Shown here: positions 1 through 27,243 of the stretch, one piece after another
Layout of the letters: each line of letters opens with the position of its first letter
Numbering within the stretch: position 1 is the stretch's first letter
Source of the DNA: an uncultured delta proteobacterium
Lineage (GTDB): Bacteria; Desulfobacterota; Syntrophia; Syntrophales; UBA8958
NCBI GenBank assembly: GCA_903885795.1
Contig: CAISJV010000007.1
Coordinates: forward strand, 75,455-139,454
Direction: 5' to 3'
DNA: 64,000 bases
Notes under the pieces: model-generated
What the model saw: the letters and a program-made list of their open reading frames with translations, nothing else
Database searches by the model: none
Told to the model about the DNA's origin: nothing
Program-made: the position numbers and the translations under genes

Positions 1-224
1 ACTCCTCCCATGACGCCGGTACAGTCACCGAAGCTTACCAGCCCCATGGAAAGCTGATTGATCGAGGGCATGCAATCCACAAGGATATTATACGCCGCCG
101 GGGCTGTTGTCGCCGACATATTGATGTCCGGGTAAGGGATGGGAGTCGGAATAGGACCCACGGGGGTAATGCATACATCGGGGAAACCCATATTCATTCC
201 CGCGCCCTGGGATAGCATGAACAT
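1..224 (-). CDS. PAAR-like DUF4150 protein, copy 1 (N-terminal part; the gene runs off the window)
   Basis: Not in the ORF track. My minus-strand translation from the ATG at 224-222 reads MFMLSQGAGMNMGFPDVCITPVGPIPTPIPYPDINMSATT... An AAGGAGG RBS lies just upstream. It shares the PDVC-TP-P-P-PYP motif with 14725-15120 and 26848-27243. Confidence 0.75.
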   Translation of the reverse strand, partial: MFMLSQGAGMNMGFPDVCITPVGPIPTPIPYPDINMSATTAPAAYNILVDCMPSINQLSMGLVSFGDCTGVMGG

Positions 225-313
225 AAAAACCTCCTTAGCTTCTACATAAAAACTGTTCCAATTGTGTGCTTATTTTCATTCTTCGCTGTACCCGAAATCA
301 TGGGCATGAGTTT

Positions 314-946
314 TTATCCGAGATGGACCTGCCCGGCATTGATCGTGACGATTTCCTCGGCGACATGCATGGCATTCTTGGAATGCATGGTAAGGTTTGT
401 ATCGACGAGATAGCGCGTCGATCCGGTCTGTATTTCCTCGTGATCCTTCACAAATCTGAAAGCATCGATGAGCTTTTCCGTAAGCTGCTGGAAGATATTT
501 TCCACTTTCCCGGCCACCGTCTTGATGCTTCCAAACTCAGCAAAAAAGGACTTCCCCAAGAACGAACATTCATCGAAGGCGGCATTGCCGGTCCTGGCGG
601 CCAGGGAAAGCCTGTCCGACACGACCGACACCTCATCATCCGCCGAGATCGTAAGTCCTCCCCGGCGAATATGAAGACTCGCATCACCTTCCAGGATGAT
701 CTCATTGACCTGCCCCAACGCCTGATTCTGCACCAGAACGGAAAGGATAAAACAGTTTCCCTCCGCATCGAAAACAGTAAGGACGGAATCTCCCTGCTTC
801 GGCCTTACGAGACAACTTGCCGCCTTCAGGGCCGTGTAACTTCCCAGCGAAGTCTCCACTCTCAACAAATCTTCCTCTTCCACTACCATACCGTACTCAA
901 GATAGGGCTGGGCATGATCCTTTGTTTTTAAAAGCCTTTGCTGCAT
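314..946 (-). CDS. DUF3540-like protein, copy 1
   Basis: 210-aa ORF, paralog of 15139-15795 and 26208-26834. The C-terminus ...EEIVTINAGQVHLG matches ...EEEVTIDGEKIHIG in the paralogs. It sits between a pentapeptide gene and a PAAR-like gene, the usual DUF3540 context. Confidence 0.7.
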   Translation of the reverse strand: MQQRLLKTKDHAQPYLEYGMVVEEEDLLRVETSLGSYTALKAASCLVRPKQGDSVLTVFDAEGNCFILSVLVQNQALGQVNEIILEGDASLHIRRGGLTISADDEVSVVSDRLSLAARTGNAAFDECSFLGKSFFAEFGSIKTVAGKVENIFQQLTEKLIDAFRFVKDHEEIQTGSTRYLVDTNLTMHSKNAMHVAEEIVTINAGQVHLG

Positions 947-981
947 GGTTTTTCCTCCGTATATAGTTCACTTATTTGTTT

Positions 982-25130: not shown

Positions 25131-26215
25131 TAGGCGCCGACGAGATAATTGCCAAAATTAAAAGAGACGGTCATCTGACGGGAGGGGATCTCACGGGCAT
25201 TGACCTTTCCCGCCGGGACCTCACGAGAGTCATCCTGGAAGGGGTGCAAATGCCCGGGGCTAATCTGGAGGAGGCAAAGCTCAGCGACAGCGCCCTGATC
25301 AGGGTCAATCTCGCCGGCGCGCGGATGGTCGGGGCGGACCTTACGGGCGGCCGCCTGGACAACGTCGACCTGACCGGCGCGCGCATGGAAAAGGCCATCC
25401 TGACCAACGTCACGCTGCAAAATGTTTCCCTCATCGGAACCGATCTTTCGGAGACGGACCTCAGCAATGCCTTTGCCGACCAATGCGATTTCAGCCACGC
25501 CAGATGCATCGGAGCGAATTTGTTCAGGGCCTCCCTGCAAGGCTGCCGGCTCCACGCCCTGGATGTAACGGCTGCCGATCTGACCCGCCTCCTGGCCTTG
25601 GACAGTGATTTCACCGGGGTAGTCTTCAACAAGACGGATCTTACCAAGGCCTTCCTCGGGAAGAGCACCTTTGGGAAACAGAACTTCTCCGGCTGCACCC
25701 TCAAGTTGACGATATTTGACAAAAGTCTTCTGCAGGGAGCCGACTTCTCCGGTCTGGATCTAACCCAGACGAGCTTTGGCGGTGCCGACCTGACGGCGGC
25801 CCGGCTCACCAATAGCAGTGGTAAACATATAATCTTTAACGAGATCGTCGCTCCGGGGGCCGATTTCTCGGAGGCAGATTTTTTTATGGTCAACTTCAGC
25901 AAGGCACATCTGACGGGAGCGATTTTCCACCGCGCCCGGATAGAGCAATCCCTTTTCAGCGATTCCCGCTTAGATAAGTGTGATTTTCGTCAGGCCGGGG
26001 CGCCCTATACGGATTTTTCCCGGGCCGTTGTAACCGGCGCCGATTTCTCAGACGCCCGCCTGAACCGCGCCAACTTCCACCGCGTCCGGAGAAGGGAAGC
26101 CCGCTGGGACGGGGCGCATACGGAGACAATATATAAGACCGACCCCAAACTCTGGGCGGCGGAGAGTTGGGCCGCCCCGGAGCGCAGAAGTCAAAGGAGA
26201 GATAAACATGAATAA
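25127..26215 (+). CDS. pentapeptide-repeat protein, copy 3 (362 aa)
   Basis: GDLTGIDLSRRDLTRVILEGVQMPGANLEEAKL... repeats run throughout. An ATGA overlap links it to the upstream gene. Confidence 0.9.
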   Translation: MIGADEIIAKIKRDGHLTGGDLTGIDLSRRDLTRVILEGVQMPGANLEEAKLSDSALIRVNLAGARMVGADLTGGRLDNVDLTGARMEKAILTNVTLQNVSLIGTDLSETDLSNAFADQCDFSHARCIGANLFRASLQGCRLHALDVTAADLTRLLALDSDFTGVVFNKTDLTKAFLGKSTFGKQNFSGCTLKLTIFDKSLLQGADFSGLDLTQTSFGGADLTAARLTNSSGKHIIFNEIVAPGADFSEADFFMVNFSKAHLTGAIFHRARIEQSLFSDSRLDKCDFRQAGAPYTDFSRAVVTGADFSDARLNRANFHRVRRREARWDGAHTETIYKTDPKLWAAESWAAPERRSQRRDKHE

Positions 26216-26834
26216 TATCATTGCCATCAAGCGCCACGACCTGCCCCGGGAAGCAACCCTCCTCTACGCCCGGGTAACAGAAAATGACGGCGACGCCTAT
26301 CGCGTTCATCTCGACAACGGAGATCTTCTTTCCGCCCGAAGAGCCGGCGGCTGCCTCTTGGTTCCGGAGACCGGCGACGAGGTGCTTGTCGCCGACAACG
26401 GCGAGCAGGCCTTTATTCTCAGCGTCCTGACCAGGGAGGGGGATAGGGGAAGGATAACCTTTCCCTGCACAAGCACCATTGAAGGAGAGGAAATCAACTT
26501 CAAAGCCGGCCGGGCCATGACCATGGAGGCCCCCCGGATCTCCTTTACGGGCATCCTCGGGGAAGTGAGATTTAAGGGGCTTTCTCTCCTCTCCCAATGG
26601 TGCGACGCCCGGATCAAAAAAATCACTACCACGTCGGAGAGCTGGGACCGCGTGGTCGGACGTCTTACCGAGCGGATCAGGGACAGCTACCGCCGGATCG
26701 AAAACACCGAACAGACAACGGCTGGCCGGATCAGGACCATCGTGAAGGGGCGCTTCTCCGTAACAGCGAAAAACGCCGCCCTCACAGCGGAAGAGGAAGT
26801 CAATCTGGACGGGAAGAAAATCCATATCGGATAG
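26208..26834 (+). CDS. DUF3540-like protein, copy 3
   Basis: 208-aa paralog of 15139-15795, ending ...EEEVNLDGKKIHIG. It overlaps the preceding gene by 8 nt. Confidence 0.7.
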   Translation: MNNIIAIKRHDLPREATLLYARVTENDGDAYRVHLDNGDLLSARRAGGCLLVPETGDEVLVADNGEQAFILSVLTREGDRGRITFPCTSTIEGEEINFKAGRAMTMEAPRISFTGILGEVRFKGLSLLSQWCDARIKKITTTSESWDRVVGRLTERIRDSYRRIENTEQTTAGRIRTIVKGRFSVTAKNAALTAEEEVNLDGKKIHIG

Positions 26835-26847
26835 AGGAGGAAGAACG

Positions 26848-27243
26848 GTGTTTGCCGCCACCATTGAAAAGGGACAGGTGTTCGCCATGCCCGATGTCTG
26901 CAAGACCCCTGCCCCGCCGGGACCGCCCGTGCCGATACCCTATCCCAACACCGGCATGAACCAAATGGGCAATCCGACGGCGAAAAAGGTCTTGATTAAC
27001 GGCGCTCCCGCCCTGACCAAGGCATCCAAGATCCAGCCTACCAACGGCGACCAGGCCGGGGTAGCACAAGGCCTCGTTTCCGGAAAAATCATGGGACCGG
27101 CAGAATTCATCATGGGCAGCACAAAGGTGAAAATCGAGGGCAACCCAGCAGTGTTCATGGGGAATCCAACCAAACAGAACGACGGCAACGCCGTCGGCTC
27201 GCATGCGCAGCCCTCCCAGAACAAGGTCATGATCATGAGCTAA
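26848..27243 (+). CDS. PAAR-like DUF4150 protein, copy 3 (131 aa, no extension domain)
   Basis: MFAATIEKGQVFAMPDVCKTPAPPGPPVPIPYPNTGM...NKVMIMS. Confidence 0.85.
   Translation: MFAATIEKGQVFAMPDVCKTPAPPGPPVPIPYPNTGMNQMGNPTAKKVLINGAPALTKASKIQPTNGDQAGVAQGLVSGKIMGPAEFIMGSTKVKIEGNPAVFMGNPTKQNDGNAVGSHAQPSQNKVMIMS

Follow-up and report, generated by a model that had tools for sequence, protein, structure and literature searches.

The window analysed in this study is a stretch of 64,000 nucleotides (64 kb) from an uncultured delta proteobacterium (contig CAISJV010000007.1 of assembly GCA_903885795.1), and its first 27,243 positions carry three co-linear gene sets related to the spike of type VI secretion systems (T6SS). 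According to the listing of open reading frames (ORFs) and Pfam searches, each set encodes a VgrG, a protein joining a DUF2169 domain to pentapeptide repeats (PPR), a separate PPR protein, a DUF3540 protein and a PAAR-like protein of the DUF4150/PIPY type. The second to fourth of these are called TvpAB, TvpB and TvpC below (TagAB, TagB and TagC in the alternative nomenclature), names taken from Serratia, where the VgrG1-Paar1 pathway cannot do without any of the three (Monlezun et al. 2026, PMC13373197), and each set is referred to as a module. Pfam recovered all 14 complete genes that an earlier note on this DNA had assigned to these sets, at the same coordinates and with E-values of 1e-35 to 1e-82 for the module domain calls; the count of three modules given there has to be raised, to at least four.

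Module 1 lies on the minus strand and consists of vgrG (5998-8244, 748 amino acids (aa), type A; Phage_GPD 7e-75, Phage_base_V 4e-11, TIGR03361 6e-105), a long form of tvpAB (2040-5960, 1306 aa; DUF2169 4e-82, Pentapeptide 2e-38), tvpB (982-2043, 353 aa; Pentapeptide 7e-63), tvpC (314-946, 210 aa; DUF3540 5e-43) and the gene for a PIPY-type PAAR-like tip (1-223; PIPY at residues 28-31). The last of these is clipped by the window edge; on the identical contigs L001-L003, where L-numbers denote contigs or loci from related genomes that were compared with the window, the complete gene encodes 134 aa with a Tox-PAAR-like match. Module 2, also on the minus strand, begins with tvpC (15139-15795, 218 aa; DUF3540 2.6e-41) and the PAAR-like tip gene (14725-15120, 131 aa; Tox-PAAR-like 3.7e-35, motif PIPTPY), followed by vgrG (11860-14676, 938 aa, type B; Pfam and TIGR03361), a short form of tvpAB (9292-11841, 849 aa; DUF2169 1.5e-77, Pentapeptide 7e-50) and tvpB (8462-9295, 277 aa; Pentapeptide 3e-42). 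This placement of the DUF3540 and PAAR-like genes ahead of vgrG had been pointed out before, and it is kept in the relatives L009 and L013. Module 3 lies on the plus strand, with vgrG (19908-22595, 895 aa, type B; Pfam and TIGR03361), short-form tvpAB (22614-25130, 838 aa; DUF2169 3.9e-77, Pentapeptide 5e-47), tvpB (25127-26215, 362 aa; Pentapeptide 1.8e-48), tvpC (26208-26834, 208 aa; DUF3540 3.6e-40) and the tip gene (26848-27243, 131 aa; Tox-PAAR-like 2e-37, PIPY at residues 29-32).

Several details are common to the three modules. All three VgrGs (748, 938 and 895 aa, each at least 700 aa) adjoin their Tvp genes and score above the TIGR03361 cut-off, and the DUF3540 (PF12059) matches span the full protein in every module (3.6e-40 to 5.4e-43). 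In a sequence search of the PDB, the DUF2169 crystal structure 8vth matched residues 94-266 of the module 1 TvpAB (1.5e-15). The stop codon of tvpAB and the start codon of tvpB share the four nucleotides ATGA in all three sets (2040-2043, 9292-9295 and 25127-25130), an overlap that the earlier note had read correctly, and in module 3 tvpB and tvpC overlap by a further 8 nucleotides. The tip proteins, of 131-134 aa, carry the motif PIPY, PVPY or PIPTPY and no PAAR motif, with P(I/V)PY in modules 1, 3 and 4 and the variant PIPTPY in module 2. They are bare PIPY domains without any extension, as had been recognised for the two complete 131-aa proteins.

The fourth module was found on contigs with identical proteins, where it forms a convergent set just past position 1. 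It encodes a DUF2169-PPR protein of 1258 aa, a PPR protein of 346 aa, a DUF3540 protein of 218 aa and a PAAR-like protein of 134 aa, together with a VgrG of 772-781 aa by gene calls, whose gene extends past the end of the DNA examined; a short contig that carries its orthologue, at 82% identity, has housekeeping genes upstream of it. Two genes, for a 164-aa Lcl_C (DUF1566-like) protein and an FGE-sulfatase protein (L001 5300-6810), separate the PAAR gene of module 1 from that of module 4; they are on the strand opposite to the former and on the same strand as the latter, downstream of it. A signal peptide is present in the Lcl_C protein and also, when translation is taken to start at an upstream ATG (321 aa), in the FGE-sulfatase protein. 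On a contig with a different arrangement, a solitary type-A module has homologues of the two, at 47% and 74% identity, on its flanks (L055 4300-4800 and 16724-17722). By analogy with the periplasmic Vai1, they may be periplasmic immunity or accessory factors, a suggestion that we make with low confidence. The possibility raised in the earlier note that a classical effector-immunity pair lies just past position 1 was rejected, as these two signal-peptide proteins and the fourth module are found there instead.

The four modules fall into two types. Type A comprises modules 1 and 4, with VgrGs of 748 and 772-781 aa, TvpAB proteins of 1258-1306 aa and PAAR-like proteins of 134 aa, and type B comprises modules 2 and 3, with VgrGs of 895-938 aa, TvpAB proteins of 838-849 aa and PAAR-like proteins of 131 aa. 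Identity between modules 2 and 3 amounts to 63% for VgrG, 58% for TvpAB and 77% for the PAAR protein, and between modules 1 and 4 to 47%, 37% and 50%, respectively; components of type A share approximately 28-44% identity with those of type B, and each component is closer within its type. Such co-divergence would fit cognate sets. Both types co-occur on related contigs. The ratio of nonsynonymous to synonymous substitution rates (dN/dS) is 0.07-0.30 for all module genes when compared with their L009 orthologues (0.07 for the PAAR-like gene of module 2), and this purifying selection, together with the divergence of the paralogs, indicates that the module genes are functional and anciently duplicated. 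Recent duplication or an assembly artefact was rejected as an explanation because the paralogs are just 28-77% identical and the layout recurs on independent contigs. A single genome can therefore hold four diverged copies of such a module in two subtypes.

Judging from domain content and gene linkage, the modules are members of Class III of the Tvp systems, since they combine a DUF2169-PPR fusion, a separate PPR protein, a DUF3540 protein, a bare PIPY tip and linkage to a long VgrG; Class III systems are known to accompany small PAARs without effector domains (PMC13373197). The Class III system of Serratia marcescens Db10 has the same five protein types and no separate effector gene, and its gene order, vgrG1-tvpAB-tvpB-tvpC-paar1, is matched by modules 1 and 3. 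There are also clear differences. Serratia has one module, whereas the present genome has four diverged tandem modules outside the core cluster; the type-A TvpAB is approximately 430 aa longer here and has an extra alpha/beta domain; the type-B VgrG contains an internal hydrophobic hairpin in place of a plain long beta-prism; and no immunity gene of the Vai1/DUF3192 type follows vgrG in this host, which belongs to the Thermodesulfobacteriota. Gene order and domain content are likewise identical in Burkholderia T6SS-5 (and T6SS-3/4; Shalom 2007 nomenclature; PMC6335564; PMC13584744), where vgrG-5 is followed by tagA/B-5, tagB-5, tagC-5 (DUF3540) and tagD-5 (PMC6335564), and where TagD-5, a PAAR-like protein of 130 aa without an effector domain, is also bare. 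The Burkholderia set sits within a 13-gene core cluster, unlike the modules of the window, and its Tag proteins are required if Hcp is to be secreted or the sheath assembled (PMC13584744).

The same DUF2169-PPR, PPR, DUF3540 and DUF4150/PIPY genes beside vgrG are described as DUF2169 synteny type C, which accounts for 37% of DUF2169 genes (Sachar et al. 2025, PMC11883445), and as accessory genes of T6SS group_5 of B. glumae (PMC8747328). The former source renames DUF4150 the PIPY domain, demonstrates that DUF2169 is its chaperone and reports a 1:1 ratio of DUF2169 to PIPY genes; its experiments concern single-domain DUF2169 proteins (types A and B of that scheme), whereas the form found here is multidomain. 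The Agrobacterium system of Tap2/Atu3641, Tde2 and VgrG2, a Class I Tvp system, was the model adopted in the earlier note. It shares a DUF2169 chaperone, a DUF4150 tip and a cognate VgrG with the window modules, but its DUF4150 protein bears a DNase toxin and it has neither PPR nor DUF3540 proteins; the Class III systems of Serratia and Burkholderia are closer. The earlier statement that the triad of DUF2169-PPR, PPR and DUF3540 proteins has no experimentally defined role has been superseded by the work on Tag and Tvp proteins (PMC6335564, PMC13584744, PMC11883445, PMC13373197). The main contribution of the present modules is to extend this mechanism, itself explained only recently, to anaerobic Thermodesulfobacteriota that are uncultured.

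Given the genes observed here, with their domains and motifs, their paralogy, their conserved context and the purifying selection on them, the explanation that we consider probable, and hold with good confidence, is that the locus carries four Class III Tvp modules, arranged in tandem and of ancient divergence, whose spike is the cargo, with the canonical T6SS core located elsewhere. Each module encodes its own VgrG spike, a bare DUF4150/PIPY sharpening tip and dedicated chaperones that would not themselves be secreted. In Serratia it has been shown experimentally that a pre-complex of TvpC, TvpAB, TvpB and Paar1 is formed, in which VgrG1 then replaces TvpC (PMC13373197). If the homologous proteins act alike, the hydrophobic PIPY tip would be shielded by the DUF2169 domain of TvpAB, and TvpAB and TvpB, through their pentapeptide beta-helices, would wrap around the PIPY protein and belt it onto a trimer of TvpC that would act as a mimic of the VgrG tip. 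VgrG would then take the place of TvpC, and the capped VgrG-PIPY spike would enter the baseplate and be fired. A separate toxin gene would not be needed, because the spike itself would be the cargo, and the VgrG1 spike of Serratia is indeed a membrane-depolarising effector without a separate effector domain (PMC13373197).

The absence of a recognisable toxin from the modules, as claimed in the earlier note, was upheld. Pfam searches up to E=10 of the middle of TvpAB, both kinds of VgrG tail and p258 (a conserved protein encoded between modules 2 and 3, see below) returned noise only, the fold search of the TvpAB middle gave weak matches only, and PDB sequence searches gave matches confined to the DUF2169, pentapeptide and VgrG core regions. 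The tails of the type-B VgrGs have distinctive features of their own. Each contains a predicted pair of hydrophobic helices (residues 693-760 in module 2, nucleotides 12397-12600; residues 714-776 in module 3, nucleotides 22047-22235) and ends in a beta-rich tip closing with I(Q/L)LG (IQLG in module 2, ILLG in module 3); the hairpin and the tip are kept in nine related VgrGs, all of which end in I(Q/K)LG, and these VgrG ends resemble the IH(I/L)G ends of TvpC. When type-B VgrGs are compared with those of relatives, the core is 80-89% identical and the tail 26-68%. The module 2 VgrG shares 83-89% of its core and 47-68% of its tail with the L009 proteins, its core being closest to one L009 VgrG (89%) and its tail to the other (68%; L009 4684-7392 and 12558-15404), and the module 3 VgrG has a core identity of approximately 80% and a tail identity of approximately 28%. 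This pattern suggests, from the alignments, recombinational exchange of tails among the VgrG modules of close relatives, and the mismatch between core and tail, together with the fast divergence of the tail, fits an effector part that diversifies and can be exchanged.

The module 3 tail yielded 20 weak metagenomic matches among 1.84 billion representatives in an exhaustive HMMER search, and the cluster members bore no useful names; a word-indexed search had no match at all, the query protein included. The C-terminal domain of the Burkholderia VgrG-5 is the sole known T6SS-5 effector, acts in eukaryotic membrane fusion and is reported to be unique to Burkholderia; word-indexed and HMMER searches revealed no similarity between it and the module 3 tail. 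Ahead of the tail, the VgrG of module 2 has a collagen-like Gly-X-Y run, GQKGDKGDTGGKGDTGAKGDKGESG, at residues 554-589 (12910-13017, minus strand) with a faint SclB-like NCBIfam match, and module 3 has, at residues approximately 520-620 (21468-21767, plus strand), four tandem 21-residue repeats resembling KTPKGSQFVMDDDPEKKSMSL that lengthen the beta-prism and are absent from the module 2 paralog. The type-A tail, as seen in the module 1 VgrG, follows a gp27/gp5 core and is an extension of approximately 150 aa with a seven-residue periodicity (lags 7, 14 and 21) and no hydrophobic helices.

By comparison with the characterised homologues, the VgrG tail is the likeliest payload, and the payload of type A is less clear. 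For modules 2 and 3 we infer that the fast-evolving tail would be the cargo and that its hydrophobic helix pair would most likely insert into or perturb a target membrane. Modules 1 and 4 differ in having a heptad-periodic VgrG extension and a TvpAB that has gained an insertion of approximately 430 aa, helical and alpha/beta in nature. Of the two payloads that the earlier note had proposed, the VgrG tails thus agree with the homologues and with the tail analysis, and the pentapeptide proteins are unlikely, because secretion of TvpAB and TvpB was never observed in Serratia, where the two co-purify as chaperones (PMC13373197). The natural variation of the tails offers material for testing whether VgrG itself is the effector, a question left open in Serratia.

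A different interpretation of the same tails is that the spikes are empty, the modules providing an alternative route of T6SS nucleation in which the Tvp proteins fill the baseplate cavity, the tails form a structural beta-prism and the toxins are Hcp-dependent or encoded as orphans elsewhere. Cavity filling was proposed by Monlezun et al., who also reported that Hcp-dependent effectors continue to be delivered through the VgrG1 pathway (PMC13373197), and such a role is consistent with the lack of an immunity gene adjoining modules 2 and 3, with the resemblance of the type-A tails to simple periodic extensions and with the presence, beside a module in L005, of an NlpC/P60 hydrolase gene paired with a gene for a 231-aa protein. 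On the other hand, a structural prism has no need of the conserved hydrophobic helix pair of the type-B tails, these tails diverge fastest and are apparently exchanged, which is typical of effector domains, and four diverged modules would be costly for mere nucleation. We therefore regard filler modules as possible but rather unlikely. In L005, a metagenome-assembled genome (MAG) of Desulfovibrio sp., the NlpC/P60 gene (4e-29) and its 231-aa companion lie at 12468-13735, between p258 and a Tvp module with genes for VgrG, a long TvpAB, TvpB and a PAAR-like protein and with no DUF3540 gene called; it is plausible that the two constitute a cargo effector-immunity pair in that genome.

The long TvpAB of module 1 was the other place where a toxin might have been hidden, and the earlier note had singled out the unassigned middle of 2040-5960. 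The protein has its DUF2169 domain at residues 23-305 and its pentapeptide beta-helix at residues approximately 981-1297, the only region matched by pentapeptide chains in the PDB. Alignment with its paralogs places an insertion of approximately 430 aa at residues approximately 362-791 (nucleotides 3588-4877), which consists of long helices and an alpha/beta domain. This domain is strongly conserved, and H, D, E and C are among the residues that are kept. An AlphaFold2 (AF2) model of residues 300-1000, built with 48 homologues, had a pLDDT of 78.5, and the alpha/beta domain, amid long helices, reached approximately 94. Searched with Foldseek against the PDB, it gave weak matches to two primases of the TOPRIM type, DnaG and T7 primase, and to folds of a generic Rossmann-like kind, with a best E-value of 9e-4 and, for the primase/TOPRIM-like matches, TM-scores of 0.41-0.49 when normalised to the target. 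A TOPRIM or DnaG-type primase identity was rejected on the grounds that these TM-scores are below 0.5, that no DxD motif of the TOPRIM kind is present where the equivalent strand ends and that Pfam up to E=10 found no Toprim or nuclease domain in the TvpAB middle. No known toxin was thus found in this region by Pfam, phmmer against the PDB, or AF2 and Foldseek, and the insertion is a real, undescribed accessory domain with no recognisable toxin. Homologues of the long form (approximately 1230-1317 aa) are widespread, occurring in Deferribacter, in Thiorhodovibrio and in cultured Maridesulfovibrio, Desulfonatronum and Desulfocurvibacter, and cultured carriers such as Maridesulfovibrio zosterae and Desulfonatronum thioautotrophicum would make it experimentally accessible. 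No mention of the insertion was found in the parts consulted of PMC11883445 and PMC8747328.

A further reading takes the PPR proteins, or else the domain inserted into the long TvpAB, to be the secreted payload, in the manner of the pentapeptide effector PipB2 of the type III secretion system. One homologue is automatically annotated as 'Type III effector pipB2', and the strong conservation of the alpha/beta domain, its conserved H, D, E and C residues and its weak primase/TOPRIM-like fold match also speak for this reading. Against it stand the chaperone behaviour of TvpAB and TvpB in Serratia, the judgement that TagAB-5 of Burkholderia is not an effector (PMC6335564) and the above negative results for a TOPRIM or nuclease, and we consider such a payload extremely unlikely. 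As a separate observation, three loci (L007 521-2720, L016 approximately 800-3000, and L018) have three tandem paralogous genes of approximately 220 aa between vgrG and the long tvpAB; one of these has a faint DUF3540 match (E 0.009), and they may encode extra TvpC-like proteins.

The earlier note had found no T6SS core in the 64 kb, which was corroborated by Pfam and by hidden Markov models (HMMs) from relatives; its wider conclusion that firing machinery is lacking overlooked one gene, located between modules 2 and 3. When HMMs of the relatives' TssA, TssB, TssC, Hcp, TssE, TssF, TssG, ClpV and Fha were compared with the six-frame translation of the window, only 17332-18945 was matched. This plus-strand gene encodes a 537-aa protein (Pfam VipB 1.8e-33) that scored 92.6 bits against TIGR03355 (TssC), below the cut-off of 271.5. 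Its AF2 model is confident (pLDDT 88.6, pTM 0.88), and the top Foldseek matches are TssC/VipB sheath chains (E approximately 1e-18). With hhalign, residues 5-95 align to canonical TssB (95%) and residues 132-491 to canonical TssC (99.8%), and the protein is accordingly termed a single-chain TssB-TssC-like sheath paralog. Identity with canonical TssC was rejected, given the score below the cut-off, the fused TssB-like N-terminus and the separate 494-aa TssC in the same genomes.

Downstream of the sheath paralog, a plus-strand gene (19048-19824) encodes the conserved 258-aa protein p258. Searches of Pfam, NCBIfam and the PDB (phmmer and profile) gave no match. Its dN/dS is 0.15, and Trp, Gly and Pro are invariant at many of its positions; by eye only, its N-terminal half resembles an alternating beta/alpha domain. 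The context of the pair was examined in a sample of sheath-paralog homologues and 45 loci from GTDB genomes, all of them MAGs, and carriers of the paralog are nearly all Thermodesulfobacteriota (Syntrophales, Syntrophorhabdaceae, Desulfovibrionales, Desulfobacterales and Desulfatiglandales). This distribution assigns the window to an uncultured Syntrophales or Syntrophus-like bacterium; a megablast of the stretch at 16-20 kb against E. coli genomes gave no match, and an enterobacterial origin was rejected accordingly. Family clustering placed p258 in 26 of 49 related loci, usually adjoining the sheath paralog; recounted around the sheath paralog, it is present in 24 of 46 loci and in 14 of the 19 with full flanks. 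A literature search on the pair found nothing.

In up to nine loci the sheath paralog directly follows canonical tssA-tssB-tssC(494 aa)-hcp-tssE-tssF-tssG-clpV genes, the fullest core operon beside the pair being found in L026, L029 and L046. An FHA gene precedes the paralog in 13 loci, several of which also have a PpkA-like kinase and a PP2C phosphatase. In the Syntrophales locus L015, tssC, tssE-F-G, clpV, the sheath paralog, p258 and a type-A module (VgrG and long TvpAB) are contiguous. Because the paralog lies behind a core operon or Fha in relatives, it can be marked as an accessory of the canonical T6SS and the island as an accessory region of that system, and because the pair adjoins the core operon or Fha/PpkA/PppA, we infer that the canonical core is most likely encoded elsewhere in this genome. 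The sheath paralog and p258 are apparently an undescribed accessory pair of the canonical T6SS. This pair is the most novel lead of the analysis, and with the long-form TvpAB domain and the hairpin-bearing, apparently exchangeable VgrG tails it goes past the published description of these systems.

The pair could alternatively be read as the basis of a self-contained, reduced contractile or spike device that is independent of the canonical T6SS. Of the 19 loci with full flanks, 13 have VgrG and Tvp genes no more than 10 kb from the sheath paralog, and core genes are often absent over the same distance; the model of a sheath protomer is confident. Such a device would nevertheless have neither an Hcp tube nor a baseplate or membrane complex in the island, the loci with the paralog right behind a canonical operon have their own TssB and TssC there, and the association with Fha also ties the paralog to the canonical system. 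A reduced device is thus very unlikely.

Several observations weigh against the explanation by Class III Tvp modules with the spike as cargo. Pfam searches of all substantial ORFs of 15.8-64 kb revealed no T6SS core gene in the window, L009 and L010, the nearest relatives, have none over a distance of 10 kb, and TssJ, TssK, TssL and TssM were not seen in the flanks of the relatives. Homology between TvpC and VgrG was not detected by hhalign of family alignments, so that the step in which TvpC mimics VgrG rests on published structure predictions. The hydrophobic helices of the type-B tails are predicted by hydropathy alone, and the lack of an immunity-like gene with modules 2 and 3 would be surprising if a membrane toxin were directed at bacteria resembling kin. 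Finally, the conserved residues of the TvpAB insertion could reflect an unrecognised activity. A more far-reaching reading is a lineage-specific T6SS adaptation in Thermodesulfobacteriota, this syntrophic Syntrophales lineage among them, in which the sheath-paralog/p258 pair would be combined with families of self-contained, immunity-less VgrGs whose hypervariable tails bear a transmembrane hairpin and that could insert into or fuse membranes in the manner of VgrG-5 and are aimed at non-kin such as methanogens or protists rather than acting as antibacterial toxins; we consider this elaboration quite unlikely.

The remaining genes of the region are neighbours of the modules and of the sheath-paralog/p258 block. 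Directly upstream of the sheath paralog, on the plus strand, a gene at 16157-17320 encodes a GluR0-like ligand-gated channel (Pfam SBP_bac_3 split by Lig_chan), which holds the same position in seven Syntrophales loci and is replaced by an SBP-only version in L007, L016 and L018; a tie between this channel and the T6SS is uncertain. In the housekeeping part of the window, two minus-strand ORFs have no Pfam or NCBIfam match (55703-58201, 832 aa; 62951-63784, 277 aa). Immediately after module 3, at 27240-29219, are a gene with RodZ-like HTH_25 and AMIN domains and a cupin gene. In 8-11 loci the sheath-paralog/p258 block has these two genes as its conserved neighbours, and module 3 appears to have been inserted between p258 and this pair.

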